14,505 nucleotides of DNA. Source: Candidatus Aenigmatarchaeota archaeon. Lineage in GTDB: Archaea; Aenigmatarchaeota; Aenigmatarchaeia; Aenigmatarchaeales; JACQIB01. Below are positions 1-12,845 of the stretch, piece by piece (within the stretch, counting starts at the first letter, position 1; every line of letters starts with the position of its first letter). The DNA lies in assembly GCA_043799675.1 (NCBI GenBank), contig JAZDNN010000002.1, positions 1 to 14,505 on the forward strand. Direction: 5' to 3'. The position numbers and the translations under genes were made by a program. The notes beneath the pieces were generated by a model. It saw only the letters and a program-made list of their open reading frames with translations. It was not told the DNA's origin and did not search any database.

Positions 1-37
1 TTACCAAAGGGAGAAGCAGGCGAACGGACATTCCCAT
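1..37 (-). CDS. Possible 5' end of a divergent gene running off the window (MGMSVRLLLPLV..., signal-peptide-like)
   Basis: ATG at 37 (alternative at 31) on the minus strand, open to the window edge; only 12 codons visible and no well-spaced TATA. Confidence 0.3.
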   Translation of the reverse strand, partial: MGMSVRLLLPLV

Positions 38-44
38 GCATAGA

Positions 45-50
45 TTTAAA
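45..50 (+). promoter_or_regulatory. Archaeal TATA box (TTTAAA) of tRNA-Ser
   Basis: First T lies 27 nt upstream of tRNA G1 (72). Confidence 0.75.
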
Positions 51-71
51 CTGCAATGCTTCATCTCGTCT

Positions 72-234
72 GCCGTCGTAGCCTAGCTAGGTAAGGCGCT
101 AGATCAGCGTTGAGGCGTATCTCGAAAACTAGTGCTCGCAAGGGCTCGCAGGTTCAAATGAGCACCGCAGTGCCAAAATATGTTTTGGCAACCTCCGGGT
201 TGCAGTGCTCTGAAGTATCCTGCCGACGGCGCCA
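72..234 (+). tRNA. trnS: tRNA-Ser(CGA) with two non-canonical introns (30/31: 103-119; 59/60: 159-217) and encoded CCA
   Basis: Acceptor GCCGTCG(72-78)/CGACGGC(224-230), G73, CCA 232-234; D-stem GCCT/AGGC; spliced anticodon arm CTAGT-CTCGAAA-ACTAG; long variable arm GCTC-GCAA-GGGC; T-arm GCAGG-TTCAAAT-CCTGC. BHB at 30/31: helix CGCT(97-100)/GGCG(114-117), bulges AGA and TAT, inner stem TCA/TGA. BHB at 59/60: helix TTCA/TGAA, inner stem GAGCAC/GTGCTC. Confidence 0.93.
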
Positions 235-243
235 GATCATTTA

Positions 244-504
244 TCAAGTGCTGGACTGTGAATATCCTTTTGCATCGCCTATTACAGGCAGCGGATGCAG
301 GGTATAGCCCGCCTTACGGAGCATGTCGGAAAGCAACTTCATCTCCTCATCACCTTGCTTCGGGTCGGTATCGTTCACTTCCAGCTTGACCAGGCATTCG
401 GGGTCGCCCATGCAGTACACTATTTCGACTATCCGTCCCCGTCCGATTCTGGCCAATCCGGCCGGGTTGGCATCGTGTCCGCTCTCAAGCCTCGCGTATC
501 GCAT
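244..504 (-). CDS. Small hypothetical protein (86 aa, MRYARLESG...)
   Basis: ORF track gives 244..519; start moved to ATG 504 because a minus-strand TTTAAG (534-529) begins 30 nt upstream. Confidence 0.6.
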   Translation of the reverse strand: MRYARLESGHDANPAGLARIGRGRIVEIVYCMGDPECLVKLEVNDTDPKQGDEEMKLLSDMLRKAGYTLHPLPVIGDAKGYSQSST

Positions 505-540
505 GCAATACCAAAGCACGGATAGGTTCTTAAACCGATG

Positions 541-1839
541 CTAGATTGAAATCAGATTCAGTTTCCTCAGTGACCAGTAAGCCGCCAACCCGGCCCCCAT
601 CACTGCGGCCCCCGCGAAGAATATCTCCTTGCTGAAGAAGAAAAGCATGAACATGTTGGCGGCAAGGCCCAATCCGGCCAGCACAGGGAACCTTCCTATA
701 TTAACTGGCATTTGGAACTGCCCAGGATGCCAGTGATAACTGGGCGTCCGGTAACGGAGCACTATGACCGAAAGGTTCACGACCGCGAACATGAGGAACG
801 CGCCGAAATCCGAAAGCTTAGCCACAGTCTCGATGCTTCCTATGGTCGTGAACGAGGCGGTGACAACCAATACCAGTATGATTGCCACCCACGGCGTCTG
901 ATGCTTGGGATGGACCTTTGACAGTATCCGCGGCATGCCGCCTTCCGCCGCCATGGACCGTATCATCCTTGAAGCGGCTATCATGGAAGCCAGGACGGTC
1001 GTAAGGGTGGCGCCGAACGCTATGAATGACAGGACCGGCCCGAGGCCCGGCATCGCGGCCTCTGCCACTACGGCAAGCGGTGCATCGCTGGCGGCAAGCA
1101 CGTCCATGGGTACCACGCTTACCGCCGTGATTGAAACCACCATGTACAGAATTGTTGATATTCCGAGCGCTATCAGAATACCGTGGGGTATGACGTTCTT
1201 GGCGTTCTTGGTCTCATCCGACATGTTCGCCACGTTCTCGAACCCCAGGTATGCGAAGAAGACCAGCAACGCCCCCGTCATCACGCCCCCGAAGCCGCCC
1301 TTCGGAACGGTATAATCCACGCTGCCAATGTAACTCCATCCCAGCGCCACGATTATGAGCAATCCGATTATCTCCACGGCCGTCAGCAGCATCTCGAAGT
1401 CGACGGATGCCCTGATGCCCTTGAAGTTCAGCATGGAAAGCAGGATGATGAGGACGATTGCCGCCGTCAGGATGGGAACGCCCGTCATCGCCGAGAAATA
1501 GCCGCCGAAGCCCAGCGAAACGGTGGCGGCGGTCGCTATCATGTTGTATATCGCCAGCCAGCCTATCAGGAACGCGAACCATTTCCGCCGGAAGGCGTGA
1601 TCGGTGTACGTGTACACCGCGCAGGACTTGGGAAAATGGCTGGAAAGCTCCGCAAAACTGAGCGCGGTAAGTCCGGCGACTATCGCCGCCACGCCATACG
1701 ACATCCAGACCGCCCCGCCGGTTATTCCAACGGCTTTTCCCAGCAAAGAATAGATTCCGGCGCCGACTATGATTCCGAGCCCGTAGACCGTTACGTCAAA
1801 CCTTCCGAGGACGCGTTTTAACCCCACCTTTCTTTCCAT
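541..1839 (-). CDS. APC-superfamily amino acid permease (432 aa)
   Basis: TM1 GIIVGAGIY, FAELSS..PK motif, TM6 FFAYLGFE, about 12 hydrophobic segments. Confidence 0.93.
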   Translation of the reverse strand: MERKVGLKRVLGRFDVTVYGLGIIVGAGIYSLLGKAVGITGGAVWMSYGVAAIVAGLTALSFAELSSHFPKSCAVYTYTDHAFRRKWFAFLIGWLAIYNMIATAATVSLGFGGYFSAMTGVPILTAAIVLIILLSMLNFKGIRASVDFEMLLTAVEIIGLLIIVALGWSYIGSVDYTVPKGGFGGVMTGALLVFFAYLGFENVANMSDETKNAKNVIPHGILIALGISTILYMVVSITAVSVVPMDVLAASDAPLAVVAEAAMPGLGPVLSFIAFGATLTTVLASMIAASRMIRSMAAEGGMPRILSKVHPKHQTPWVAIILVLVVTASFTTIGSIETVAKLSDFGAFLMFAVVNLSVIVLRYRTPSYHWHPGQFQMPVNIGRFPVLAGLGLAANMFMLFFFSKEIFFAGAAVMGAGLAAYWSLRKLNLISI

Positions 1840-4800
1840 GCGGAAGGTTGTCGAAAGGGACTAATAAAACATCCTTTTTCACCGCTTTGCGGGGCTTCTT
1901 TACGGAAGACGTTTCCGGCCTGGCTGCAAGAGGTAACGACGATGCAGGCAAAGGTCTTTGCCGGGCCATCCTGCCGCCGTATCCCTGCGGGGACCTTTCA
2001 TGCTTCCAGTATTGCCACGTGAATATCGTCATCACTATCAATATCACCACTATCCACAGGAAATCCACCACAGCGCAGGTTCCTTCCTCCTGCCATGCGG
2101 TGCACTGGTAATCCGTCTGACTGTCGCAACGATAGTTGGTCCTGAACCATATGCCTTCCGTGCAAGCGCCCCACGGACCCGGCGGCTGACAGGTCTTGCA
2201 TTTGTCGGTCAGTTCCGTGTTGAGGTCGTATCTGGCCGTGGCGCTGTTGCTGCGGGCGGTGAAATTGATGCCGTAGACGGCGAACGGCGCGAACTGCGGG
2301 ATGCTGATTGTGGCGCTTATCGGCACGCTCTCCTTCGGCTGCAGTTTCTCGATGAACGAAGGGCTTATCGTGACCCATTCGGAAGGTATGCCCTCGGCCG
2401 TGACGGTTATGTCTTCCAGCACGCGGTTTCCGGTATTGGTGAGCGTGAGGTCCAGCGGTTCCGTAGAACCCCTGCCGACCGTCACCTGGTTGATGCCGTC
2501 CACCACCGTGATATCGCCGTCGCCGGAAAGATTCATGTTCCATACGGGTATCTGTCCGGAAAGGGACTCGTTGAATATGGTCACGGTGCCCGGACCGGAG
2601 GGCCCTGACGGAGGAGATGAGCCTGTTCCGGTGACGGTGAATGTCCGGTTTATCGTGTCGTTCCTGACAAAGAAATCCGCGCTCGCGTTCAGGGTGGCTG
2701 TCCACGTGCCGGGGTCGTTTGTCAATGCCAGCGTACCGTTCCAGAAGTACGATGTGCTCGATGAGTTGGTGAACACGATGAACGTCCAGTCGTCACCCTC
2801 GGTTCCGGGCGTGCCCGTGCACCCGCCCCAGCCGCTCAACTGGAAGTAATCATAAATTCCCGCCCACCAGTCGGGAGAATCGGACCCTATCAGGTTGTAA
2901 ACGGCGTTCGCATAACCGGGACAGGTGCCGGAACCGCAGGTAAACCTGAAATAATAAGGCGGGGTTTGTGAGCCCGAAAACGAGGGCACCGAACCCGGAA
3001 CCAAGTTCTCATCGAACGCCAGCAAGTCGCTGCCTCCGATGTCCCAGCAGGAGTTGCCTGTTCCGCTGGTCAGGTTGGTCGTTGTAACCGTGGTGTTCGC
3101 CCGACGATACAGGCCGGAATGCAATCTGCTTCCGTCGGGCTTGGCCAAGCTGATGTTATAATTCAGGTTGTAGTTGCTCTGCATCACAGAAAGACTCTCG
3201 CCCCACGGGAAGGTTATGTCGGCCTTTGCGGTCAGGTTGTCTGTGGAATTGTAGCTCGTTCCAGGATAGCTGCCCGCAAGCAGGAAACTGGTATTGAGGC
3301 TTCCGTAAACACGCGCAGTCGGCTCACCGAGCGTGTTATAACTGTCGTTGACTGCCGTCCAGAAATAGCTTCCGGCGTAGTCGTGGTCGTCGGCCGGGCT
3401 CCACCAGTACGTCGCCACCCCGTTCACGCTGGTGTTGCTGCCCAGGGACCAGTAGGAGGATTCATAAGCGGAAGGCGCGGTCTGGTTTATCTCGAATGTG
3501 ACTTCCACCCCGCTCGCCCCGTCCGACAAGGTCGCTACGAGGGGGATTGCATCCGGATAGACGTTGCTCACGGAGTCCCTGTCGATTATGGAATTGTTGT
3601 ATCCCATCGAAAGCGTCAGGTTCTGTTTGGGCCCGAACTGGTAGAGATAGGCGTCGCTGTCAACGACGTACAGCATCCCGTTGTACGGGACCATGCTCAT
3701 CGGCCTTTTTGTGATGTGGTGGCTCCAGAGCAGGCTGCCGTCTGATGCATTCAGTGCAAGCACGTAGCTCCCCCACGGTGGCTGGTTCAGGTCCGCACCC
3801 ACATACAGGACCCCCTTGTTGTCCTGGACAGGTCCGGTCATGTAGGCCACGTTGAGCCCCAGGTATGACGACCATATTTCGGACCCGGTGACGGCATCGT
3901 GAGCGTAGCAGTATGAACCGTAGCAGAAATACACGGCATTCCCGTATACTTGGAACACCGCGTTGAGACCGGATGCCACCCCGTGCGCGACCGACCACGA
4001 CTCGGTCATGTTCGATATGTTGTACGCGTGAATCATGCCGTTGTCCTGGTCCCCGAAGAACACGTTCCCGTAGCCTACGGACGGGACCGTGGGAATCCGG
4101 CCGGTGAAGCTCTGGTTCCACAATCTTGTTCCGGTAAGCACGTCCAGCGCATAGATTTCGCCTGCGAATGCCCCGCCGGTCGACTCGTACGCGGTCAGGT
4201 AGAAGGTGTCGTTGTATATCGCCGGCGGGTCCCACACGAGCCCCCCGCCGGGAACGTTCCAACCGGTCACGTTTTCGGGCGTGAATTCCCATACCTTGTC
4301 GCCCGTAAGGTAATTCCTGCCCGTTATGGTGGTATGGTTATCGTTGATCAGGATGCCGTTGTGATAACCGGTGGCGAACATGTCGTAATAGAAATCATCC
4401 GTCACGTTCCACAGCTGGGTGCCGTCCGTGACGTTGTACGCGAATATTCCCGGAGCCCCGTAACTGGCCACGAACAGGACCCCTCTTGCAACCGTGGCAT
4501 CCATGGCGTTGATGTAACTGATATCGGCTATTTCCCATATCTCGTCGCCGGTCGTGGCATTGACCGCAACAACATAGTCCTGCGTGGGCACTATGATCAT
4601 GCCGTCCGTCGCCAGCATGGTATGATAATTTGCCACGCTGTCGCTTTCCACCCTGATCCTCCAGAGGACTTTGCTGCCCAACGGTCCCGATATGTTTGTA
4701 TTCGCGTATCCCCACCTCTCGTTGTTCTGTTGGGCGGTCGGCCAGTCAACGGCAATGCTGCTGTTCAGCCTGCTGTAACCCTTGTTCCCGCCGGTGACGT

Positions 4801-5188
4801 TGTCCGGGTCCACAATCACATGCACGTCATGGAGCTCGCTGGTTGCCGTCCAGGGCATGCTGGCGCTGGCCGTGGAACCGGCAGCCAGGGAAGGCAGCGT
4901 TCCGTTGGCCACGTTGCTGTCGTCGATGTAAAGCGCAATCACGAATGTGGCTGCCGGATCCTCGGTACCCACGTTCTTGACGGTGATGTTGAACTCGACA
5001 TTATCCCCTGTCTGCGGTCCTGCCGGGCTGTAGCTTATGGAAATCGGTCTTAAGTCCCCCTGGAAATCGGCGGGCGCAAAGGCGGTCACGACCGGCCCCT
5101 GTCTCATCATGGCACCGAACGCAAAGAATGCCGCCAGGACTGCGATGGAAATCACGGCAAGAATTCCCGTTTTCTCTGCTCCTTTCAT
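1796..5188 (-). CDS. Large membrane-anchored surface glycoprotein (~1130 aa): N-terminal TM/signal, CARDB Ig-like domain, PQQ/BamB-like beta-propeller repeats, further Ig-like domains, Cys-rich module, C-terminal TM and basic tail
   Basis: CARDB-like DLRPISISYSP...VEFNITVKNVG; repeats AVNATTGDEIW, AYNVTDGTQLW, ALDVLTGTRLW, AHDAVTGSEIW, ALNASDGSLLW; many NxS/T sequons; TM FLWIVVILIVMTIFTW. Start moved from TTG 5203 to ATG 5188 using the TATA at 5217-5211. Confidence 0.85.
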   Translation of the reverse strand: MKGAEKTGILAVISIAVLAAFFAFGAMMRQGPVVTAFAPADFQGDLRPISISYSPAGPQTGDNVEFNITVKNVGTEDPAATFVIALYIDDSNVANGTLPSLAAGSTASASMPWTATSELHDVHVIVDPDNVTGGNKGYSRLNSSIAVDWPTAQQNNERWGYANTNISGPLGSKVLWRIRVESDSVANYHTMLATDGMIIVPTQDYVVAVNATTGDEIWEIADISYINAMDATVARGVLFVASYGAPGIFAYNVTDGTQLWNVTDDFYYDMFATGYHNGILINDNHTTITGRNYLTGDKVWEFTPENVTGWNVPGGGLVWDPPAIYNDTFYLTAYESTGGAFAGEIYALDVLTGTRLWNQSFTGRIPTVPSVGYGNVFFGDQDNGMIHAYNISNMTESWSVAHGVASGLNAVFQVYGNAVYFCYGSYCYAHDAVTGSEIWSSYLGLNVAYMTGPVQDNKGVLYVGADLNQPPWGSYVLALNASDGSLLWSHHITKRPMSMVPYNGMLYVVDSDAYLYQFGPKQNLTLSMGYNNSIIDRDSVSNVYPDAIPLVATLSDGASGVEVTFEINQTAPSAYESSYWSLGSNTSVNGVATYWWSPADDHDYAGSYFWTAVNDSYNTLGEPTARVYGSLNTSFLLAGSYPGTSYNSTDNLTAKADITFPWGESLSVMQSNYNLNYNISLAKPDGSRLHSGLYRRANTTVTTTNLTSGTGNSCWDIGGSDLLAFDENLVPGSVPSFSGSQTPPYYFRFTCGSGTCPGYANAVYNLIGSDSPDWWAGIYDYFQLSGWGGCTGTPGTEGDDWTFIVFTNSSSTSYFWNGTLALTNDPGTWTATLNASADFFVRNDTINRTFTVTGTGSSPPSGPSGPGTVTIFNESLSGQIPVWNMNLSGDGDITVVDGINQVTVGRGSTEPLDLTLTNTGNRVLEDITVTAEGIPSEWVTISPSFIEKLQPKESVPISATISIPQFAPFAVYGINFTARSNSATARYDLNTELTDKCKTCQPPGPWGACTEGIWFRTNYRCDSQTDYQCTAWQEEGTCAVVDFLWIVVILIVMTIFTWQYWKHERSPQGYGGRMARQRPLPASSLPLAARPETSSVKKPRKAVKKDVLLVPFDNLPHGKKGGVKTRPRKV
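1862..1879 (-). promoter_or_regulatory. BRE/TATA for the APC permease, inside the 3' end of the upstream surface-protein CDS
   Basis: Minus strand AAAAAGGATG-TTTTATTA; first T (1869) is 30 nt from ATG 1839. Confidence 0.6.
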
Positions 5189-5237
5189 GGAACCAAATGG
5201 CAAGGCACGCTTAAAAATATCGGCACCGGCACCAACC

Positions 5238-5244
5238 TTAATAA
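5238..5244 (+). promoter_or_regulatory. TATA box (TTAATAA) of tRNA-Gly, back-to-back with the divergent TATA (5211-5217) of the surface-protein gene
   Basis: First T 28 nt upstream of tRNA G1 (5266). Confidence 0.65.
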
Positions 5245-5265
5245 GTTCTGTTGGCTACTCTGGAT

Positions 5266-5407
5266 GCGCCGGTAGTCTAGTGGTAGGATACGAGCTTGCC
5301 AAATCACGTGCAATTAGCTCGCGACTCGGGTTCAAAATAGCGCGCAGCGCCAAAAGCGCTTTTGCCGCCGATGCGGCGGTGCTATGATTGTCCCGGCCGG
5401 CGCACCA
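5266..5407 (+). tRNA. trnG: tRNA-Gly(GCC) with a canonical 37/38 intron (5302-5315), a non-canonical 59/60 intron (5337-5390) and encoded CCA
   Basis: Acceptor GCGCCGG/CCGGCGC, A73, CCA 5405-5407; anticodon arm CGAGC-TTGCCAA-GCTCG; BHB at 37/38 with helix TTGC/GCAA and bulges CAA, TTA; 59/60 helix TTCA/TGAT (one T-T mismatch), bulges AAA and TGT, inner stem TAGCGC/GTGCTA. Confidence 0.94.
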
Positions 5408-5468
5408 TCTGAATTCCGTGATGCGGTACCCTTTTTGCCTTTAAATCCTTTCCGTCGGTTCGACATGT

Positions 5469-5636
5469 ATGAACATAATCGAATGGCTTGACGGCCGCAA
5501 GGACGTGCAGGACTACCTGAAGGTCGGGTTGATATTGCCCGAAATAATGGACGCATATTGTACCGAAATGAAGGAAATGAAGAAAAACCCCATGGAAAGG
5601 GGGCATGCGGCCGTTTATATCAATGAAAATAATTAG
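5469..5636 (+). CDS. 55-aa ORF (MNIIEWLDGRKDVQDYLKVGLILPE...), possibly the 5' fragment of a disrupted 185-codon gene 5469-6026
   Basis: TTTAAAT at 5440-5446, first T 29 nt upstream of the ATG; in frame with the 5715-6026 ORF across two TAGs (5634, 5661); below the ORF-track size cut-off. Confidence 0.5.
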   Translation: MNIIEWLDGRKDVQDYLKVGLILPEIMDAYCTEMKEMKKNPMERGHAAVYINENN

Positions 5637-5714
5637 GTCATCCCTCTGGAAAGGGTCGTTTAGAGGCAGGCCGGGAGGTATTTTGACGGGTTTTCCGGCA
5701 CCATCAGCAGGAAC

Positions 5715-6026
5715 ATGCGGTTGATTGCAACGAACGAAAGGCAGGGCATCATAAGACCGTATTATGAAATATGTGATGCAGGCACCGCCTGCGCGCCCGT
5801 AAAACTCCTCGCTGAAATAGGAAGGCTCGGCAAGCCGCGCCATGCGGATTTTAGGATAACTTACGGAAATTACGTGTTCGACAAGCTGAAGAAAATGGAC
5901 CTGTTGAGGATTGAAAACGGCGATTGCGTGCTTGCAGGAGATGCATTGCAGATTTTCGACAAGGAGACCGTCCGCATATGGAACGACCTGAAAGAATGGA
6001 AGTATCGCAGGAAGTTCTTCGGGTGA
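5715..6026 (+). CDS. Hypothetical protein (103 aa) with a loosely winged-helix-like C-terminal half; possibly the 3' fragment of a disrupted gene
   Basis: ORF track; FDKLKKMDLLRIENGDCVLAGDA resembles a wHTH helix plus wing; no own TATA seen. Confidence 0.55.
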   Translation: MRLIATNERQGIIRPYYEICDAGTACAPVKLLAEIGRLGKPRHADFRITYGNYVFDKLKKMDLLRIENGDCVLAGDALQIFDKETVRIWNDLKEWKYRRKFFG

Positions 6027-6032
6027 ACCTGT

Positions 6033-6266
6033 ATGGGGTACGGTTCGTTCGTAAAGTCAAAAGAAGCCGTTCTGGACAACCCGAAACGGAGAAAGATGTA
6101 TGACATCATCCTCAAGAGCGGCGGGAAGACCGCGGATGAAATCAAGAAGGAGACAGGCTTGACGATGGAATCCGTGGATTATCATCTGCATTACCTGCAG
6201 ATGACCGGTTTCATACACACGACGGAAAGGAACCCGTACACTTATCGTCCCGTCAGGGACCCGTGA
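6033..6266 (+). CDS. ArsR-like winged helix-turn-helix protein (77 aa)
   Basis: LDNPKRRKMYDII...TADEIKKETGLTMESVDYHLHYLQMTGFI; Shine-Dalgarno-like GGGTGA (6021-6026) 6 nt before the ATG. Confidence 0.85.
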   Translation: MGYGSFVKSKEAVLDNPKRRKMYDIILKSGGKTADEIKKETGLTMESVDYHLHYLQMTGFIHTTERNPYTYRPVRDP

Positions 6267-6276
6267 CGCGGAACGG

Positions 6277-6292
6277 GGAAATAGTTTAAATA
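6277..6292 (+). promoter_or_regulatory. BRE and TATA (GGAAATAG-TTTAAATA) of tRNA-Leu
   Basis: First T (6285) 30 nt upstream of G1 (6315). Confidence 0.8.
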
Positions 6293-6314
6293 GGGTCCGC
6301 CCCCAAGCAAGTTT

Positions 6315-6436
6315 GCGGGAGTCGCCAAGCCAGGTCTAAGGCGCAAGGCTCAGACAGTGAGTGCGATGCTTAGGAAGACCTTAAGAAACCTTGTGGGTTA
6401 GTCCCTTCGCAGGTTCGAATCCTGCCTCCCGCACCA
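6315..6436 (+). tRNA. trnL: tRNA-Leu(TAG) with two introns (30/31: 6348-6367; 37/38: 6375-6387) flanking a 7-nt anticodon micro-exon; encoded CCA
   Basis: Acceptor GCGGGAG/CTCCCGC, A73, CCA; long variable arm; T-arm GCAGG-TTCGAAT-CCTGC. BHB1: helix CGCA(6342-45)/TGCG(6362-65), bulges AGG and ATG, inner stem CTCA/TGAG. BHB2: helix CTTA(6369-72)/TAAG(6382-85), bulges GGA and AAA. Spliced arm CAAGG-CTTAGGA-CCTTG has the G37 typical of Leu. Confidence 0.9.
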
Positions 6437-6499
6437 TCCGTGAAACGTGGTGCGCGCACCCGACAATTGATATAAAAACGGGCTTCTCCAAACTTCTCC

Positions 6500-9133
6500 G
6501 TGAACGGCAACTCCGTGAAGGGCCTGACGAACGAGGAGGCGAAGGCGCGGCTGAAGAAGTACGGCTTCAACGAGATAAGGGAGCTTTTTCACATATCGCC
6601 GCTCCGGATACTTCTGAAGCAGGTGAAAAAGAACTTCATTATATACCTGCTGCTCGGGGCGATGCTGATTTCGTTCCTTGTCGGCAAGGTCATAACCGCC
6701 TACACCATCATGGGGGTCATAACCCTCGTCATCCTTGTCGGTTTCATACAGGAATATCGGGCCGAAAGGGCCGTGAAGGCGCTGAAGGCGATGATGATGC
6801 CGGTTTCCGTCGTGATCAGGGACGGCCGTGAACAGGACATCCCTTCGAGGGAAATGGTCCCGGGTGACGTCATTGTCCTTAGGGCGGGCGAGAAGATTCC
6901 GGCGGACTGCGTCGTCCTGGAGGCAAAGGAGCTCAGGGTCAACGAAGCTATGCTGACGGGTGAATCGCATGAGGTGGAGAAGACCGCCGCACGGGATGCC
7001 GGAAGGCCGAGAAAGGAGAGCCTTGTTTTCATGGGGACGTTCATCGTCGGCGGCAGGTGCATGGCCAGGGTCCTCCACACAGGCATGAACACGGAATTCG
7101 GGAAGATAGCCGGAATGATTTCAACGGCGGAAAAGGAGCTTCCGTTGCAGGCCAAGGTGAACAGGATTGCGAAATTCATGGCAACGACCGCGATCATCGT
7201 CTCGGTCCTGACGGGCGTCGTGATGGTTGCCCGGAGCGCGACCTTCTCTTACGAGCTGCTCGTGGATGTCCTGATGGTCGTCATCGCCCTGTCCGTATCG
7301 GCCTTCCCGGAGGGCTTCCCGGTCGTCCTCATCACCACGCTGGCCTCGGGCGCGTACAGGATGGCAAGGAAGAACGCCATAGTGAACAGGATGTCCGTGA
7401 TAGAGACGCTCGGCGAGACCACTGTCATATGCACGGACAAGACGGGAACGGTGACGACGGGCGAGATGACCGTCAAAAGGCTGTTCGCGGACGGAAAGTT
7501 CTTCGATGTCACGGGCGCAGGCTTCAGCGCAAAAGGGGGCTTTTTCCGCGGCAGGAAGGGGGTGGACCTGAAGAAAGAATCTGTCCTGGGCCTGCTGCTG
7601 AAAGCGGCAATACTTTGCAACGATTCGCGGGTCGAAAAGAAGGGGACCGACAAAGAATACTGCGCGACAGGCAGCCCGACGGAAGCGGCATTGTTGATAA
7701 TGGCCGCAAAGGCGGGCATGTTCAGGGAGGACCTGAAGTTCTCCAGGATGCAGGAAATACCGTTCAGCTCCGAGCGGAAGATGATGTCCGTTCTCTGCAG
7801 GGAGAGGACGGAAAAATATGTCTACGCGAAGGGGGCCCCGGACATCCTGCTGGGAAAATGCAGGTTCATGCAAAAACAGGGCAGGGTAATCAGGCTTGAT
7901 GATGCCGAAAGAAAACGGATACTGGCGGTGAACGGCAGGCTGACATCGGACTGTTTCAGGGTCCTGGCACTGGCATACAGGAAAACGGGTTCGAAAAGGA
8001 GGGGCGGCCTTGAGGAATCGCTGGTGTTCCTGGGACTTGCGGCACTCGAGGACCCCCCGAGGGATGAGGTAAGGAGCTCCATAAGGATGTGCAGGACCGC
8101 GGGAATAAGGGTCAAGATGCTGACCGGTGACAGCAAGGAGACCGCGGTGGCGATAGGAAAGCAAGTGGGCCTTTCCGGAAAGGTCATGGACGGGGAGGAG
8201 CTGGACAAGATGACCGATGACGAGTTATCGAAGGCCGTTAACGACATCTCCTTCTTCGCGAGGGTGAGGCCGGAGCACAAGATAAGGATAGTCAGGGCAC
8301 TGAAGAAGAACGGTGAAATAGTCACCATGACGGGCGACGGCGTGAACGACGCCCCGGCGCTGAAGGAGGCCCATATCGGCGTCGCGATGGGCAAAGGCGG
8401 GACCGACGTGTCAAGGGAGGCGGCCGACCTTACGTTGAAGGATGACAACTTCGCCACCATCGTTTCCGCGGTAAGGGAGGGCAGGACCATTTTCAACAAC
8501 ATCCGGAAGTTCGTCACCTACCAGCTCTCGTGCAACTATGCGGAACTCATGATAATTTTCATAGGGGTACTGATAGGGCTGCCTTTGCCCCTGCTGGCGC
8601 TGCAGATACTCTTTATGAACCTTGTGACGGACGATTTGCCTGCGATTACGCTGGGCTTCAATCCGCCTTCCCGCGACGCGATGAGAGAGAAGCCGCGGAA
8701 GAAATCGGATATACTGGACCGGAACCTCATCGTTTTGCTGGCAATCGCCGGGATCATAATGGCATCGGCCACTCTGGGGGTTTTCCATTACACCCTGAAC
8801 GTCCTTGGCAAGGACCTGGCAACGGCGAGGACCACCGCCCTCGTGACCCTGATACTGTTCGAGATAGCGAACGCGTTCAACTTCAGGTCATTCAGGCATC
8901 CGGTATGCAGGCTGAATTTGTTCGCGAACAAGTACCTGATATACGCCTCGATTGCCTCAATCATGGCAACGGCCCTTGTGGTTTACACCCCGCTGAACGC
9001 GGTCTTCGGGACGGTTCCGATAAGTCCTTATTACTGGCTGTTGGCCGCGGGAGCGTCCCTGTCCGTGATTATCGCCTTTGATGTCCTGAAGGTATTGAAC
9101 AGGAAAAAGAGGTTCATGGCGGACCTTCTGTGA
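6500..9133 (+). CDS. P-type cation-transporting ATPase, type IIA (SERCA/PacL-like, probably Ca2+), 877 aa
   Basis: LTGES, TM4 PEGFP, DKTGT phosphorylation site, KGAP, TGD, GDGVNDAPALK; Ca-site-equivalent residues in SCNYAE, NLVTD and FEIAN; TATAAAAA at 6471-6478 before the GTG start. Confidence 0.95.
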   Translation: MNGNSVKGLTNEEAKARLKKYGFNEIRELFHISPLRILLKQVKKNFIIYLLLGAMLISFLVGKVITAYTIMGVITLVILVGFIQEYRAERAVKALKAMMMPVSVVIRDGREQDIPSREMVPGDVIVLRAGEKIPADCVVLEAKELRVNEAMLTGESHEVEKTAARDAGRPRKESLVFMGTFIVGGRCMARVLHTGMNTEFGKIAGMISTAEKELPLQAKVNRIAKFMATTAIIVSVLTGVVMVARSATFSYELLVDVLMVVIALSVSAFPEGFPVVLITTLASGAYRMARKNAIVNRMSVIETLGETTVICTDKTGTVTTGEMTVKRLFADGKFFDVTGAGFSAKGGFFRGRKGVDLKKESVLGLLLKAAILCNDSRVEKKGTDKEYCATGSPTEAALLIMAAKAGMFREDLKFSRMQEIPFSSERKMMSVLCRERTEKYVYAKGAPDILLGKCRFMQKQGRVIRLDDAERKRILAVNGRLTSDCFRVLALAYRKTGSKRRGGLEESLVFLGLAALEDPPRDEVRSSIRMCRTAGIRVKMLTGDSKETAVAIGKQVGLSGKVMDGEELDKMTDDELSKAVNDISFFARVRPEHKIRIVRALKKNGEIVTMTGDGVNDAPALKEAHIGVAMGKGGTDVSREAADLTLKDDNFATIVSAVREGRTIFNNIRKFVTYQLSCNYAELMIIFIGVLIGLPLPLLALQILFMNLVTDDLPAITLGFNPPSRDAMREKPRKKSDILDRNLIVLLAIAGIIMASATLGVFHYTLNVLGKDLATARTTALVTLILFEIANAFNFRSFRHPVCRLNLFANKYLIYASIASIMATALVVYTPLNAVFGTVPISPYYWLLAAGASLSVIIAFDVLKVLNRKKRFMADLL

Positions 9134-9137
9134 ATTT

Positions 9138-9635
9138 TTACTTCCCTTTTGAGAACTTGTAGACCCACAGCAGGAACAGCATGCCCAGCCACATTATGAC
9201 GAACACGGGGTTTATGTGTTCCTCCGGGAAGGCCAGATCGAGGACCATCTCCACTCCCGAGTAAATCACGTATACCAGGATGGTTACAACGAAGAACAGC
9301 GGGAACCGTTTCCATTCCGCCACCTTCCGCCCCCTGGAAAGGAGCGTGGTCATGGTCGTGCCGGTCATGCCGAACACAAGCGGCTCGAGGTACCAGAATA
9401 TCAGGAAAAGGACGCTCATGTTTATCATCTGTTTGACGTAGCCCCTGAAGAACATCATCGTCAGTATCAATGCCACGATGAACGCTATCCAGATGTACGT
9501 GAACACGTCGTGACCTATTTCGTTGCATTTTCTCCTCATTATGACCGTCGGATGGATGGGCTCTATCCGCTCCTCGCCCTTTTTTCTTACAATCGGCTCT
9601 GACACCTTCTTTTCCGCCGGTTTTGCCTTCGACAT
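9138..9635 (-). CDS. Hypothetical membrane protein (~165 aa, about 4 TM)
   Basis: ORF track gives 9138..9698 (TTG start); ATG 9635 (or 9641) preferred because a minus-strand TATAAAA begins at 9665. Confidence 0.7.
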   Translation of the reverse strand: MSKAKPAEKKVSEPIVRKKGEERIEPIHPTVIMRRKCNEIGHDVFTYIWIAFIVALILTMMFFRGYVKQMINMSVLFLIFWYLEPLVFGMTGTTMTTLLSRGRKVAEWKRFPLFFVVTILVYVIYSGVEMVLDLAFPEEHINPVFVIMWLGMLFLLWVYKFSKGK

Positions 9636-9731
9636 GGGCATATTGGAACTTGCCCGCCTTTTATACTTTCTGTCCGCAGCATTTCGCTTCCGTACCAATC
9701 ATCTTAAATCCCTTTCCCTGCAATGCTCATC

Positions 9732-10181
9732 ATGAAAGTTCTTCCTCGCTTATCTGAAATGTCGCCTTTGCAGGCGGTGTATGGCAACAGCACAAGGGAA
9801 CTTATAGTAGGACATCTCCTCGGCACCAAGGACGGCACGGATTTTTTCAGCAGAATTAAGGAGAAACTGGCTCTTCAGAACGGCTCCGCATCTTACCACC
9901 TGCGAGCGCTGGAAAAGATGGGCGTCCTGACATCCTATCCCAAGGACAACAGGAAATGGTACCGCCTGAAAAAATCCGGCGGCCCCGAGGATATAGAAGG
10001 CGACATTCTCTCGGTTGTCAACAAGCACGAAGACGGTCTCTGCGTCGGGGAGGTGGCACGGTTCGTGTTGGCGAGATATGGTACGGTCGCGAACCGCCTG
10101 CAGAAGCTTTCCGAAAACGGGGATATAGTTTACGACCGGCACGACCGGCGATATTATCCGGCTACGCGACACGATTCATAG
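9732..10181 (+). CDS. Transcriptional regulator with tandem winged-HTH domains (149 aa)
   Basis: FSRIKEKLALQNGSASYHLRALEKMGVL...RKWY and VGEVARFVLARYGTVANRLQKLSENGDIVY...RYY; TTAAAT at 9704-9709 favours ATG 9732 over 9723. Confidence 0.85.
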   Translation: MKVLPRLSEMSPLQAVYGNSTRELIVGHLLGTKDGTDFFSRIKEKLALQNGSASYHLRALEKMGVLTSYPKDNRKWYRLKKSGGPEDIEGDILSVVNKHEDGLCVGEVARFVLARYGTVANRLQKLSENGDIVYDRHDRRYYPATRHDS

Positions 10182-10250
10182 ATTCATCGCCCCATATTTA
10201 CGCTAAGCTAACTTCCGCTTTGACCTCTTAATTCAACACGCACAAACGCA

Positions 10251-10257
10251 TTTAAAG
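10251..10257 (+). promoter_or_regulatory. TATA box (TTTAAAG) of tRNA-His
   Basis: First T 28 nt upstream of G-1 (10279). Confidence 0.75.
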
Positions 10258-10278
10258 TGCCCGACCCGATTCTTGCAC

Positions 10279-10400
10279 GGCCGGGATAGTGAAGCGGTAT
10301 CATGCGGGCCTGTGGGCACTTTTTGTGCGATGCACAAAAACCTGCACTAAAAAGCGCCAGAAAGCCTAAGTCCCGAGTTCGAATCTCGGTCCCGGCCCCA
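10279..10400 (+). tRNA. trnH: tRNA-His(GTG) with encoded G-1, a 47-nt 37/38 intron (10316-10362) and encoded CCA
   Basis: G-1 at 10279; acceptor GCCGGGA/TCCCGGC, C73, CCA 10398-10400; anticodon arm CGGGC-CTGTGGA-GCCTA (C27-A43 mismatch); relaxed BHB helix CTGT/CCAG; T-arm CCGAG-TTCGAAT-CTCGG. Confidence 0.92.
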
Positions 10401-10405
10401 TTCAC

Positions 10406-10411
10406 TTTTTT
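10406..10411 (+). terminator. Oligo-T terminator after tRNA-His
   Basis: TTTTTT 5 nt after the CCA. Confidence 0.55.
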
Positions 10412-10451
10412 CCTATATTTGCTTTAAGTACCGGTTTTCCGTATCATCAGT

Positions 10452-10862
10452 ATGAAAGAAATCGTGTTTTACGCGCTGGTCGCCGTGCTGACCGCGCTGG
10501 AATGCAGCCTGATACTTGTCGGTATTTTGCCTCCGATGTCTTCCTATTCTACCAGTCAGCTGGTTCTCAACATTGCGAGCATAGCTGCAGTGATCTACAT
10601 GGGCTGGACGTTCACGAAGACCGGCATGAAGAAAGTCGCAATGAAGGGTGCCATCGCCGGTGGCATCATCGTCACCATCACCCTCCTGTCCGCAATTATC
10701 GGCATCAGCGCCGGAATACCCGTGCTCGGGATGGCAATCCAGCACGAAATGCTGCCTTTGGCATTCCTCTCGATAGCCGTTTCCAACGTCCTTCTGTTCA
10801 CGATATTTGCGGTCTTGGGGGCATTCCTTGCACGAAAGCTGCAGAAGAATGCCAAAAAGTAG
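10452..10862 (+). CDS. Hypothetical membrane protein (136 aa, about 4 TM)
   Basis: Four hydrophobic segments and a basic C-terminus; TTTAAGTA at 10423-10430. Confidence 0.8.
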   Translation: MKEIVFYALVAVLTALECSLILVGILPPMSSYSTSQLVLNIASIAAVIYMGWTFTKTGMKKVAMKGAIAGGIIVTITLLSAIIGISAGIPVLGMAIQHEMLPLAFLSIAVSNVLLFTIFAVLGAFLARKLQKNAKK

Positions 10863-10912
10863 CTTCTCCAGAAAACAATTGTTTTATATGTGAGTTTTTT
10901 CTTTCACCTAGA

Positions 10913-11077
10913 ATGCCCATGTCAACTATGATAGGTTCGGATGCCTATTACATCTGCACTCATTGCGGGAACGCCTTCAAGGACCCGAAGCTGGCGTTCG
11001 AATGCGAACAGTTCTGCATATCGCACCACAAGGCCAACCCTGAAATAACCGCCCGGGCCGCAAAATGCCCCTGCTGA
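10913..11077 (+). CDS. Cys4 zinc-finger microprotein 1 (54 aa; C-x2-C-x12-C-x3-C)
   Basis: MPMSTMIGSDAYYICTHCGNAFKDPKLAFECEQFCISHHKANPEITARAAKCPC; TTTTATAT at 10882-10889; it is the 3' part of track ORF 10502..11077. Confidence 0.8.
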   Translation: MPMSTMIGSDAYYICTHCGNAFKDPKLAFECEQFCISHHKANPEITARAAKCPC

Positions 11078-11111
11078 AAACGATTTATGTGACCTTTGCA
11101 TTAGTAATCGC

Positions 11112-11279
11112 ATGCCAAAAGCAAAGCTCTTCGGAACGAAGAACATCTGGGCCTGCAGAAAGTGCGGAATGGTGTATAAGGACATAGTGACCGCACAGGA
11201 TTGCGAGGATTTCTGCGAAAAGAACGGCAAACGCTCCGAAGTCATCGCCAAGAAGTCCTTCCAAGCCAACAGGATTTGA
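11112..11279 (+). CDS. Cys4 zinc-finger microprotein 2 (55 aa), paralog of the preceding gene
   Basis: MPKAKLFGTKNIWACRKCGMVYKDIVTAQDCEDFCEKNGKRSEVIAKKSFQANRI; same Cys spacing; TTTATGT at 11084-11090; absent from the ORF track. Confidence 0.8.
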   Translation: MPKAKLFGTKNIWACRKCGMVYKDIVTAQDCEDFCEKNGKRSEVIAKKSFQANRI

Positions 11280-11295
11280 ACCGCCCGACGGAATC

Positions 11296-11316
11296 TTTAT
11301 ATACTACTCAGTAGTA
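11296..11316 (+). promoter_or_regulatory. TATA box (TTTATATA) overlapped by the palindrome TACTACT-C-AGTAGTA, a candidate operator
   Basis: TATA at 11296-11303; perfect 7-1-7 inverted repeat at 11302-11316. Confidence 0.6.
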
Positions 11317-11334
11317 ACTATACCATAGATTGAC

Positions 11335-11886
11335 ATGTTTCAAAGCCTCAGCTACAAGGGCGACTGCGCAGCGATAAGAGCGCTTGTCGGTGACGAAAGG
11401 CCGGGACCCGTCGGTTGCGGCCGGACCTGCGGATTCAACGTTTATATCGGGGAAGACGGAGGGGCCGTTTCTGGCGACGGAGAAAAACATGAACCTGACA
11501 TGAAGGAATGTTTCATATATCGTACGGTTTATGATAAAATGAAGGAAAAATTCGGTGACGACATCATACCCAATAATATCGGTGTTGCATTCACCAACAG
11601 GTATGCCGCGATGAAGTTCTTCAGTACCGATGACGGGACCGTTGCCGGAATCAACGTATACAGGGACGATTCCAAGCAGCAGAAGATCGAGAGTTTCTGT
11701 GACGAAAAAAAGGAGGACGGAAAGCCCAGCGATCTCACGATAAAGTTCTCCGTGAAAGGGAATGCCGAAAATGCCGTCCTTGAGGAGCTGCGCCTGATAA
11801 TGGATGGCATAAAAGGGCTGAAATGCACGGAGGATACGGGGGACAGGACCGTCGGGCAGGCGGTGCTGGCAGCCTACGGGCAATAG
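11335..11886 (+). CDS. Hypothetical protein (183 aa)
   Basis: Long ORF with plausible composition downstream of a strong TATA; no family recognised. Confidence 0.7.
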   Translation: MFQSLSYKGDCAAIRALVGDERPGPVGCGRTCGFNVYIGEDGGAVSGDGEKHEPDMKECFIYRTVYDKMKEKFGDDIIPNNIGVAFTNRYAAMKFFSTDDGTVAGINVYRDDSKQQKIESFCDEKKEDGKPSDLTIKFSVKGNAENAVLEELRLIMDGIKGLKCTEDTGDRTVGQAVLAAYGQ

Positions 11887-11895
11887 GTGAAATCC

Positions 11896-12342
11896 ATGCG
11901 TGCAGTCTATCTTTTCAAAAACGAACCGGACATTTCGGCCATACGGAAGGAGCTCGACAGGACGTACGGACAGGACAATGCCTTCTTCGGGACGGTGAAC
12001 GGGCATCCTGTGAGTTTTGTCAGGAGCAGGATAGAATCGCCTTCGGCCGGTTTTTCGGTCACATATCAGATTGACGGCGTGATAGACGGCACCATAGCCG
12101 GATACTTCAACAATGTCCTCGAAGGCATGGGAGGCAAGGTCAGCCCCCAACCCCAGAAGCTGCCCTCGGACGGGATGGACATGGAGCGGCTTGAAAAGAA
12201 CGCCGGCACAGCCAACTGGAGGAAAGAAGAAAGACTGGCACGGGATATACTGGATGGCGGGGCAAAAGTCACAGACGTAACGGAAAGCCCCGACGAATTC
12301 AACGAAATCCCGATTCCGTACGTCATGCGCAGCAAGCTCTAG
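11896..12342 (+). CDS. Hypothetical protein (148 aa), second gene of a likely operon
   Basis: SD-like AGGTGA (11885-11890) 5 nt before ATG 11896; the track start GTG 11887 lies inside the SD. Confidence 0.7.
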   Translation: MRAVYLFKNEPDISAIRKELDRTYGQDNAFFGTVNGHPVSFVRSRIESPSAGFSVTYQIDGVIDGTIAGYFNNVLEGMGGKVSPQPQKLPSDGMDMERLEKNAGTANWRKEERLARDILDGGAKVTDVTESPDEFNEIPIPYVMRSKL

Positions 12343-12815
12343 CTTCCCAGGGCCTCGATTATGTCCGCCCGCGAAATGATTCCAACCAACTTGCCGTCTT
12401 TTGTGACCACCGGCAGTCTTTTCACCTTGTAATGCACCATCCTTGCCGCGGCAGCCTCAAGCCTCGCCTCCGGCTGGATGGTTATGACCCTTTTCTGCAT
12501 GAAATGCCGGACCCTGATCTTCCCGCTTCCGATGACGTCCTTTTTTATCACGTCAAACTCCTTTCCGCGCACGCCGTGTTTCAGGACCGCAAAAACCACC
12601 GCAAAGGCCTCGTCCGTGTCAAGGCGTATCTGGGGGTCATAGGCGTTGATCGCCTTTATCACGTCGCCTTCGGTGACCAGTCCGACCACCTTTCCCTTCT
12701 CCACCACGGGTGCGCCGGTTATCCTGTTCCTGGTGAGCCTTTCCAGGACCGTTTCCAGCGTATCTTCAGGCTTGAACGTGATGACCTTCTTTGTCATCGC
12801 TTCGCCCACTAGCAT
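12339..12815 (-). CDS. CBS-domain pair protein (158 aa)
   Basis: VGEAMTKKVITFKPED...ITGAPVVEKGKVVGLVTEGDV and VRHFMQKRVITIQPE...VKRLPVVTKDGKLVGIISRADII; minus-strand TTTTATT at 12843-12837. Confidence 0.93.
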   Translation of the reverse strand: MLVGEAMTKKVITFKPEDTLETVLERLTRNRITGAPVVEKGKVVGLVTEGDVIKAINAYDPQIRLDTDEAFAVVFAVLKHGVRGKEFDVIKKDVIGSGKIRVRHFMQKRVITIQPEARLEAAAARMVHYKVKRLPVVTKDGKLVGIISRADIIEALGS

Positions 12816-12845
12816 GGAAGAAAGTAGGCAGGCCGCAATAAAAGC

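Follow-up and report, generated by a model that had tools for sequence, protein, structure and literature searches.

A tRNA-Leu gene in a 14,505-nt stretch of DNA from a Candidatus Aenigmatarchaeota archaeon (contig JAZDNN010000002.1 of assembly GCA_043799675.1, positions 1 to 14,505; the whole stretch is called the window here) was found to hold two anticodon cassettes of 7 nt each, one reading CAG and the other UAG, between a single 5′ part and a single 3′ part. The arrangement and its conservation suggest that the window gene probably makes both Leu(UAG) and Leu(CAG) by alternative splicing. That the family of dual-cassette genes as a whole works in this way is judged likelier still, mainly because those relatives in which the UAG cassette comes first (UAG-first genes) carry covarying splice signals specific to the CAG cassette. 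The use of both routes in the cell, and the ratio between them, is what we infer from the genes.

The gene occupies window positions 6315-6436 of the forward strand, with all parts contiguous within 122 nt. Direct reading gives an acceptor strand GCGGGAG, a Leu-type D arm, a long variable arm, a T arm, A73 and an encoded CCA. Against the Rfam tRNA model, 6315-6433 (+) scores 43.9 bits (gathering score 29), and an insert of about 35 nt stays unaligned in the anticodon loop; the halves of the anticodon stem, CAAGG 6344-6348 and CCTTG 6389-6393, lie 40 nt apart where 7 are expected. The parts of the gene are as follows.

6285..6292, forward strand: TATA-like box TTTAAATA, 23-30 nt 5′ of the tRNA start, read from the sequence; a probable archaeal promoter element of the tRNA-Leu gene
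6315..6347, forward strand: shared 5′ exon, tRNA nt 1-30 (acceptor 5′ strand, D arm, nt 26, anticodon-stem CAAG), from the Rfam alignment
6339..6345, forward strand: 5′ strand of the first splice motif (putative docking strand), AGG of the outer helix and CGCA of the central helix (nt 25-28); pairs with the NGCG ahead of the downstream cassette
6348..6354, forward strand: CAG cassette GCTCAGA (G31, C32, U33, anticodon CAG, A37), contiguous with the 5′ exon
6355..6367, forward strand: spacer CAGTGAG-TGCG-AT, in which TGAG 6358-61 forms the inner helix with CTCA and TGCG 6362-65 is the central 3′ strand of the first splice motif
6368..6374, forward strand: UAG cassette, a predicted 7-nt micro-exon GCTTAGG (G31, C32, U33, anticodon UAG, G37)
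6375..6387, forward strand: intron 2, 13 nt, carrying the shared 3′ half-site TAAG 6382-85 and the bulge AA|A 6386-88
6388..6436, forward strand: shared 3′ exon (A38, CCTTG stem strand, variable arm, T arm, acceptor 3′ strand, A73, CCA), from the Rfam alignment

A sigma-70 promoter scan, uninformative for an archaeon, returned no match.

The original prediction had placed two bulge-helix-bulge (BHB) introns, 6348-6367 and 6375-6387, around the micro-exon GCTTAGG with anticodon UAG and G37. A geometric scan for hBHBh′ motifs (outer, central and inner helices with 3-nt bulges) reproduced every element. Intron 6348-6367 (20 nt, position 30/31) forms a perfect hBHBh′ motif, BHB1, with a 3-bp outer helix (AGG 6339-41 with CTT 6369-71), a central helix paired at 4/4 positions (CGCA 6342-45 with TGCG 6362-65), bulges AGG and ATG, and a 4-bp inner helix (CTCA 6349-52 with TGAG 6358-61). 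In a BHB motif the cut falls after the second bulge nucleotide; the 3′ bulge of BHB1 is AT plus G6368 and the cut falls after 6367. The exon ends expected from the intronless Leu(CAG) gene in a relative of the same family (G001) are consistent with this rule. At intron 6375-6387 (position 37/38) the central helix of the second motif, BHB2, pairs CTTA 6369-72 with TAAG 6382-85 at 4/4 positions, and its outer helix, the anticodon stem, is complete only once intron 6348-6367 has been removed. Both motifs thus have the two 3-nt bulges, the 4-bp helix between them and the flanking helices that define a BHB. With introns at 30/31 and 37/38, at least one of them non-canonical, the gene is of the multiple-intron kind. 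This two-intron route leaves the micro-exon GCTTAGG in a loop CUUAGGA (UAG, G37), and the CAG cassette then lies inside intron 1.

The CAG cassette is kept instead when a single 33-nt intron, 6355-6387, is removed. As had been predicted, the central helix of this alternative, CTCA/TAAG, pairs at 3/4 positions with one C·A mismatch; the outer helix has 7 bp, the inner helix 2 bp, and the product loop is CUCAGAA (CAG, A37). The half-site TAAG 6382-85 is therefore paired 4/4 with CUUA of the UAG cassette and 3/4 with CUCA of the CAG cassette. Spliced in silico, the two routes give products of 89 nt each; ARAGORN calls one of them tRNA-Leu(tag), with loop CTTAGGA, and the other tRNA-Leu(cag), with loop CTCAGAA. 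Excision restores in both a canonical cloverleaf whose anticodon loop has 7 nt, and the products differ at positions 34 and 37 only. The scan also bore out the competition between folds that had been proposed: CTT 6369-71 serves both the outer helix of BHB1 and the central helix of BHB2, and the two folds exclude each other because both need these bases. Splicing on the two-intron route would then be strictly ordered, BHB1 before BHB2.

Motifs of at least the quality of BHB1 have a frequency of about 2e-5 per position and length in the source genome (6326 motifs, both strands, lengths 10-220). Of 3000 shuffles of the 40-nt insert, 5 yielded a strict BHB solution whose loop fits Y32-U33-R37, and a two-intron solution appeared in none. 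Under the same strict rules the sole solution of the real sequence is the two-intron one, with loop CTTAGGA. Nearest-neighbour folding placed the unconstrained minimum at -43.5 kcal/mol, the BHB1-constrained fold at -39.1 kcal/mol and the fold constrained to the CAG-route BHB at -31.5 kcal/mol, in a model that leaves out tRNA tertiary structure and protein binding.

On these grounds a mechanism can be proposed. In a single transcript, nt 1-30 and nt 38-76 would be common to both tRNAs, and between them would lie two alternative 7-nt cassettes acting as mutually exclusive anticodon micro-exons, GCUCAGA (CAG, A37) and GCUUAGG (UAG, G37). The pre-tRNA would take two exclusive folds, each offering BHB motifs to the tRNA splicing endonuclease. 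In a cloverleaf-like fold, the anticodon stem would serve as outer helix and CUCA would pair with UAAG, so that 6355-6387 could be excised in one cut-and-ligate step to give tRNA-Leu(CAG). In the alternative fold, 6339-6345 (the D-stem 3′ strand and the start of the anticodon stem, nt 22-28) would pair with CUU and UGCG around the second cassette, and 6348-6367 would be excised with the CAG cassette inside it. CUUA would then pair with the same UAAG, and 6375-6387 would be excised to give tRNA-Leu(UAG). The exons would be joined by RtcB, and each of the two tRNAs would receive leucine.

The original prediction had called the CAG anticodon a decoy, a view that did not survive comparison with Leu genes that carry no intron. 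G001 has tandem intronless Leu genes on one strand of its contig C5 (locus L047, 207-292 and 578-663, 282 nt apart), a Leu(UAG) with loop CTTAGGA and a Leu(CAG) with loop CTCAGAA. The G001 Leu(CAG) gene aligns to window 6315-6354 plus 6387-6436, which is exactly the single-intron junction. Over its whole sequence the CAG-route product is 86/89 identical to the G001 Leu(CAG); the shared 5′ part is 95% identical to nt 1-40 of that gene and the 3′ part 98% identical to nt 40-89. The exon body is of the CAG type; against the G001 Leu(UAG) the identity is 75/89. A stand-alone Leu(CAG) gene in another relative (G005) also has the loop CTCAGAA. Across the class, stand-alone CAG loops have A37 in 8/9 pattern matches and stand-alone UAG loops have G37 in 81/82. 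A37 is therefore a normal feature of Leu(CAG) in this lineage. Among the distinct dual genes described below, A37 is found in 36/41 CAG cassettes and G37 in 41/41 UAG cassettes, so that position 37 follows the anticodon in the cassettes as it does in stand-alone genes. Judged by these comparisons, the CAG loop of the window gene is not a decoy.

Conservation of the layout was examined in two ways. A similarity search of 61 genomes (the source genome and 60 relatives), followed by a parse of D arm and acceptor closure, makes no use of the cassettes in either step. It yielded 26 Leu-type genes, 14 of which hold both GCTTAGG/A and GCTCAGA; the CAG cassette reads GCTCAGA in all 14. Pattern searches with a backwards-pattern control were then made over 371 genomes of the class, from 170 genera. 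The order UAG then CAG was found in 37/371 genomes (24/170 genera) and the order CAG then UAG in 3/371 (the source genome, G010 and G154; 3/170 genera), with 0/371 for the backwards control of either order. The three CAG-first genes belong to three families, and the CAG cassette is intact in all of them. Both cassettes thus stand in one Leu gene in 40/371 genomes, or in 50 when variants are counted.

The variants come from ten further genomes, nine found by a relaxed search (G007, G025, G207, G236, G238-G241 and G363) and one by similarity (G017). Their CAG cassettes include GCTCAGG, GTTCAGA and GTTCAGG; the UAG cassette of G017 reads GCTTAGA, and the spacer of G207 is CGAA only. The CAG triplet is kept in all, position 32 is a pyrimidine, position 37 a purine, and U33 is present in all but G363. 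This variation resembles that of real anticodon loops. In the 41 distinct dual genes the UAG cassette is invariant, and the flanking intron sequence is not conserved. Positions of the cassettes and the preceding GCG carry about 2 bits of information, those from the second base past the cassette 0.03-0.35 bits; this profile is partly circular since the cassettes served to find the genes. Dual genes of family f3 (L025, L027, L030, L031, L067, L068) have a third, degenerate UAG cassette unit directly after nt 30. It reads ATCTTAGGA, ATCTTGAA, ATCTAGAA or ATCTAAAAA by genome, that is, ATCTTAGGA-TGCGAA and decayed versions of it. By its sequence this third copy is the picture of an unused, decaying cassette, and it suggests a tandem duplication of the cassette unit.

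A scan of a named genome collection returned at least 118 stretches, most of them chance matches in GC-rich bacteria, and 29 passed a tRNA-context filter. Titles of 23 filtered stretches among the matches listed comprise 11 Candidatus Aenigmatarchaeota, 7 'uncultured archaeon', 4 'archaeon' and 1 'Nanoarchaeota archaeon'. A match in a record titled Vulcanisaeta was rejected as it failed the filter. In metagenome contigs, a relaxed first-cassette pattern for CAG-first genes gave 6 matches, none of them in a tRNA.

The splice signals of the dual genes vary together with their partners. Each cassette that is not contiguous with the 5′ exon is preceded by NGCG and 2 nt, and the NGCG pairs with nt 25-28 (CGCN). 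The first base of NGCG forms a standard pair with nt 28 in 53/56 cases (A:T 36, U·G 12, C:G 3, G:C 1, U:A 1), the other 3 being A·G. In UAG-first genes this signal would have no purpose unless the CAG cassette were spliced to nt 30, and it therefore supports use of the CAG route. Both cassettes share one 3′ half-site ahead of A38, for which the counts over the 41 distinct dual genes are given below.

TGAG, 16 genes: CUUA pairs 4/4 (one G·U), CUCA 4/4
TGGG, 3 genes: CUUA pairs 4/4 (two G·U), CUCA 4/4 (one G·U)
TAAG, 15 genes including the window gene: CUUA pairs 4/4, CUCA 3/4 (C·A)
TAGG, 5 genes: CUUA pairs 4/4 (one G·U), CUCA 3/4
GGAG, 2 genes: CUUA pairs 3/4, CUCA 3/4

The half-site pairs fully with both cassettes (TGAG or TGGG) in 19/41 genes. 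The mismatch-bearing TAAG is also found in 12 UAG-first genes that keep their CAG-specific splice signals. The original prediction that one gene might yield two Leu isoacceptors gains strong comparative support from these covarying helices and from dual cassettes in 40-50 of the 371 genomes; alternative splicing itself is still a step that we infer.

The window is contig C38 of a draft genome (G000) of 748,753 bases in 45 contigs, 83% complete and with 54% G+C. A census combining blastn-short with four intronless Leu queries, a D-arm regular expression and a stem-loop scan found four Leu loci: the window gene, GAG on C16, CAA on C23 and UAA on C12. The earlier prediction had named separate Leu(CAG) and Leu(UAG) genes as a point to check, and this census of an 83%-complete assembly found neither. 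Counted over 431 long open reading frames (ORFs), the Leu codon used most is CTG, with 37.4 per 1000. CTA does occur, though rarely, at 2.1 per 1000 (355 counted), and CTG is 18 times commoner. The genome encodes both enzymes expected for BHB splicing, a splicing endonuclease and an RtcB ligase. The two-subunit EndA (PF01974, 84.5 and 56.6 bits) comes from two translationally coupled genes on C10 (locus L133, 1474-2552, reverse strand) with an ATGA overlap. Both are above the TIGR00324 endA cut-off, and the subunits match the N- and C-terminal repeats of the two-repeat EndA model NF006795 (3-163 and 165-348 of 350). An intron joining the two endonuclease ORFs was considered and rejected, as no BHB was found there and the two genes overlap by ATGA. 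RtcB lies on C16, 57796-59134 (+), with 524.5 bits to PF01139; it matches the Pfam model in two pieces (profile 1-27 and 25-426). Motifs and gene content together suggest that the window transcript would be cut by this endonuclease and sealed by RtcB.

The absence of separate genes was also looked for across the class. A stand-alone pattern, in which a UAG or CAG loop is followed directly by the 3′ stem strand and variable arm, matches 88 of the 371 genomes; it matches 0/40 dual genomes, and 0/50 with variants. One-sided Fisher tests, which ignore phylogeny, give p = 1e-5 for the 40 dual genomes and p = 4e-7 for the 50. Within the order, stand-alone loops occur in 0/22 dual genomes vs 8/20 others (p = 0.001, phylogeny again ignored). 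The contrast between dual and stand-alone genes also appears within single genera or families (g13, g2 against g3, g92, f29, f32). Complementarity of dual and stand-alone Leu genes is suggestive only. A BLAST-type search proved too insensitive for intron-laden genes (2-8 matches per genome in five dual genomes), and the set of Leu loci given above refers to the source genome only.

Several observations weigh against the production of both tRNAs from the window gene, and most of them favour a plain two-intron Leu(UAG) gene. The CAG loop would then be the leftover of an ancestral Leu(CAG), now intronic as part of the BHB1 inner helix, and the UAG tRNA would read CUG by wobble; we regard this as possible, if on balance unlikely. 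In its favour, both BHB1 and BHB2 are perfect, the mismatch being confined to the CAG route, and strict BHB rules give the UAG product alone. Folding prefers BHB1, the CAG-route fold lying 7.6 kcal/mol above it with an ensemble probability of about zero for the CUCA/UAAG helix. Because of this near-zero probability, UAG should be the favoured product of the window gene in the folding model. The half-site TAAG, optimal for UAG only, is found in all three CAG-first genes, where the C·A mismatch of the CAG route is constant. Stand-alone loops in the class number 82 UAG vs 9 CAG pattern matches, so that CAG may be dispensable. Also against the production of both tRNAs, a separate CAG or UAG gene could lie in the unassembled part of the genome, and the CAG cassette of G363, GCCCAGA, has C33, the only variant with a defect. 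An intron after the loop or in the variable arm hides a gene from the stand-alone pattern, and the lack of matches in intron-rich dual genomes is therefore weaker evidence than the p-values suggest. Other features, however, weigh against a gene for Leu(UAG) only. The CAG cassette is intact in CAG-first genes of three families, and quick decay is seen in the cassette copy of family f3 that is out of use. Among the 38 UAG-first genes the CAG cassette has its own covarying 3′ splice signal, which would do nothing unless the CAG route were used. Position 37 of the CAG cassette keeps the A37 of stand-alone CAG loops, unlike that of the UAG cassette, and CUG is by far the commoner codon to be read.

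The converse, an ordinary single-intron Leu(CAG) gene whose UAG-like heptamer and surrounding BHB arose by chance in a 33-nt intron, is very improbable. Rfam aligns CUCAG in the loop with one insert, and the exon body is of the CAG type as described above, both as such a gene would have it. However, a perfect hBHBh′ and a second 4/4 BHB framing a canonical loop arose in 0/3000 shuffles, GCTTAGG with NGCG and 2 nt ahead of it is kept in all dual genes, and the 355 counted CUA codons would go unread, as no other Leu(UAG) gene was found in this genome. A chimera of two similar Leu genes merged in assembly or binning would be an even more far-fetched account. Nothing specific speaks for it beyond the origin of the window in a fragmented draft of 45 contigs. 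About 50 assemblies show this layout and its matching splice signals, with spacers that differ in sequence and length, and the collapse of two genes would not yield an NGCG plus 2 nt that covaries with nt 28.

Alternative splicing of both tRNAs from the one transcript is thus the reading we prefer. A wider proposal goes beyond it and is doubtful as a whole: that there is true cis alternative tRNA splicing in Aenigmatarchaeota, with a docking strand at nt 25-28, selector copies before the micro-exons and a balance between the cloverleaf-like and the alternative fold that sets the Leu(CAG):Leu(UAG) ratio and could respond to temperature, modification state or growth, together with a cassette module that is possibly mobile. 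In the latter, the cassette and its splice signals may form a mobile or recombining module that turns ordinary tRNA genes into two-anticodon genes. The idea is raised because cassette order differs within one family, the third copy decays, and G001 has tandem UAG and CAG genes. A deletion between the anticodon regions of tandem genes like those of G001 is one possible origin for UAG-first dual genes.

The genes around the tRNA-Leu gene encode a P-type ATPase, permeases and a surface protein, none of them tied to tRNA biology. A crude scan for twin U34/C34 loops over 66 acceptor-closed tRNA candidates in the source genome singled out the window gene only; the remaining matches looked like chance. 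All recognised tRNA genes of this genome encode the 3′ CCA. Only 16 pass the Rfam tRNA E-value threshold, since most carry an interruption and many carry more than one. Two further tRNA genes lie in the window. At 72-234 (+) there is a class-II gene with G73 and encoded CCA, missed by ARAGORN and Rfam. On visual inspection a 17-nt intron lies at 30/31, with a CGCT/GGCG helix of the same design, and the loop CTCGAAA makes Ser(CGA) the probable identity. A further intron, of about 57 nt, sits in the T loop, and the same intron family occurs in three other tRNA genes of the genome, among them Leu(GAG) and Leu(CAA). At 10280-10400 (+) a further tRNA scores 44.6 bits with Rfam and is called His(GTG) by ARAGORN with introns allowed; several introns are apparent. 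The Leu(UAA) gene (C12, 5799-5959, reverse strand) and its relatives L029 and L039 have a D-loop intron and a complex insert in the anticodon region. This insert holds the palindrome CTTAAG twice; the second copy is taken to pair with the loop and not to be a further cassette.

If the interpretation holds, conserved mutually exclusive anticodon micro-exons in cis would be a new way of encoding two decoders in one gene, and docking-and-selector exon choice would have its first analogue in archaea. Annotation is affected in practice as well. At the window gene ARAGORN makes no call by default and, with introns allowed, miscalls Leu(CAA), while the Rfam alignment reads CAG. Because standard tools report only one anticodon or none for dual genes, tRNA sets of these DPANN archaea seem to lack Leu(UAG) or Leu(CAG), and such apparent gaps distort inferences on codon reading and genome completeness.

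Full-text literature searches, with subscription journals outside their coverage, found no description of cis alternative tRNA splicing or of a two-anticodon tRNA gene. Isoacceptors, cassettes and micro-exons are not treated in any passage of the Asgard tRNA-intron preprint 10.64898/2026.10.13.758758, and PMC7080975 deals with hypothetical trans hybrids. According to PMC4033280 and PMC5829648, BHB introns, multi-intron tRNA genes and broad-specificity endonucleases are established. The closest parallel is the tri-split tRNA-Gly of Caldivirga maquilingensis (Fujishima et al. 2009), for which PMC4390854 and PMC4033280 describe alternative pieces encoded as separate genes and joined in trans. There, a constant 5′ quarter and a constant 3′ half are combined with alternative anticodon-loop pieces into synonymous isoacceptors, with BHB joining by endonuclease and ligase, and the window gene would do likewise. 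The layout and its conservation fit the split and tri-split pattern as judged from sequence. The tri-split pieces are, however, separate transcripts joined in trans through leaders, whereas here both pieces stand in cis with one 5′ and one 3′ half-site. The window gene is contiguous in 122 nt behind one TATA-like box, and the genes of the 41 distinct relatives are likewise contiguous. Its cassettes would be chosen by competing folds of one RNA, and its split sites, 30/31 and 37/38, differ from those of the tri-split tRNA-Gly. The hosts differ as well, a DPANN archaeon here and a crenarchaeote in the case of Caldivirga.

In the split tRNA-Glu of Nanoarchaeum equitans (Randau et al. 2005), as outlined in PMC4033280, one 3′ half is common to two 5′ halves. 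There too one common part is used by two isoacceptors, UUC and CUC, whose difference lies at position 34. Unlike the window gene, the tRNA-Glu is trans-spliced from half-molecules with the whole 5′ half duplicated, and it has no micro-exon and no choice within a transcript. Multiple-intron tRNA genes are known from Thermoproteales, ARMAN and others (Sugahara et al. 2008, cited in PMC4033280). They share with the window gene several short BHB introns at non-canonical sites such as 30/31. Each of them gives one tRNA, and their introns have no reported second conserved anticodon loop.

The logic of choice has a counterpart outside tRNA. In exon 6 of Drosophila Dscam, a docking site and selector sequences choose among mutually exclusive exons by competing RNA pairing. 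In the dual tRNA-Leu genes, one docking strand (nt 25-28, CGCN) would likewise pair with one selector copy (NGCG), so that exactly one cassette is kept. Dscam relies on the spliceosome and concerns an mRNA, whereas the window gene would rely on a protein endonuclease and RtcB and concerns a tRNA.

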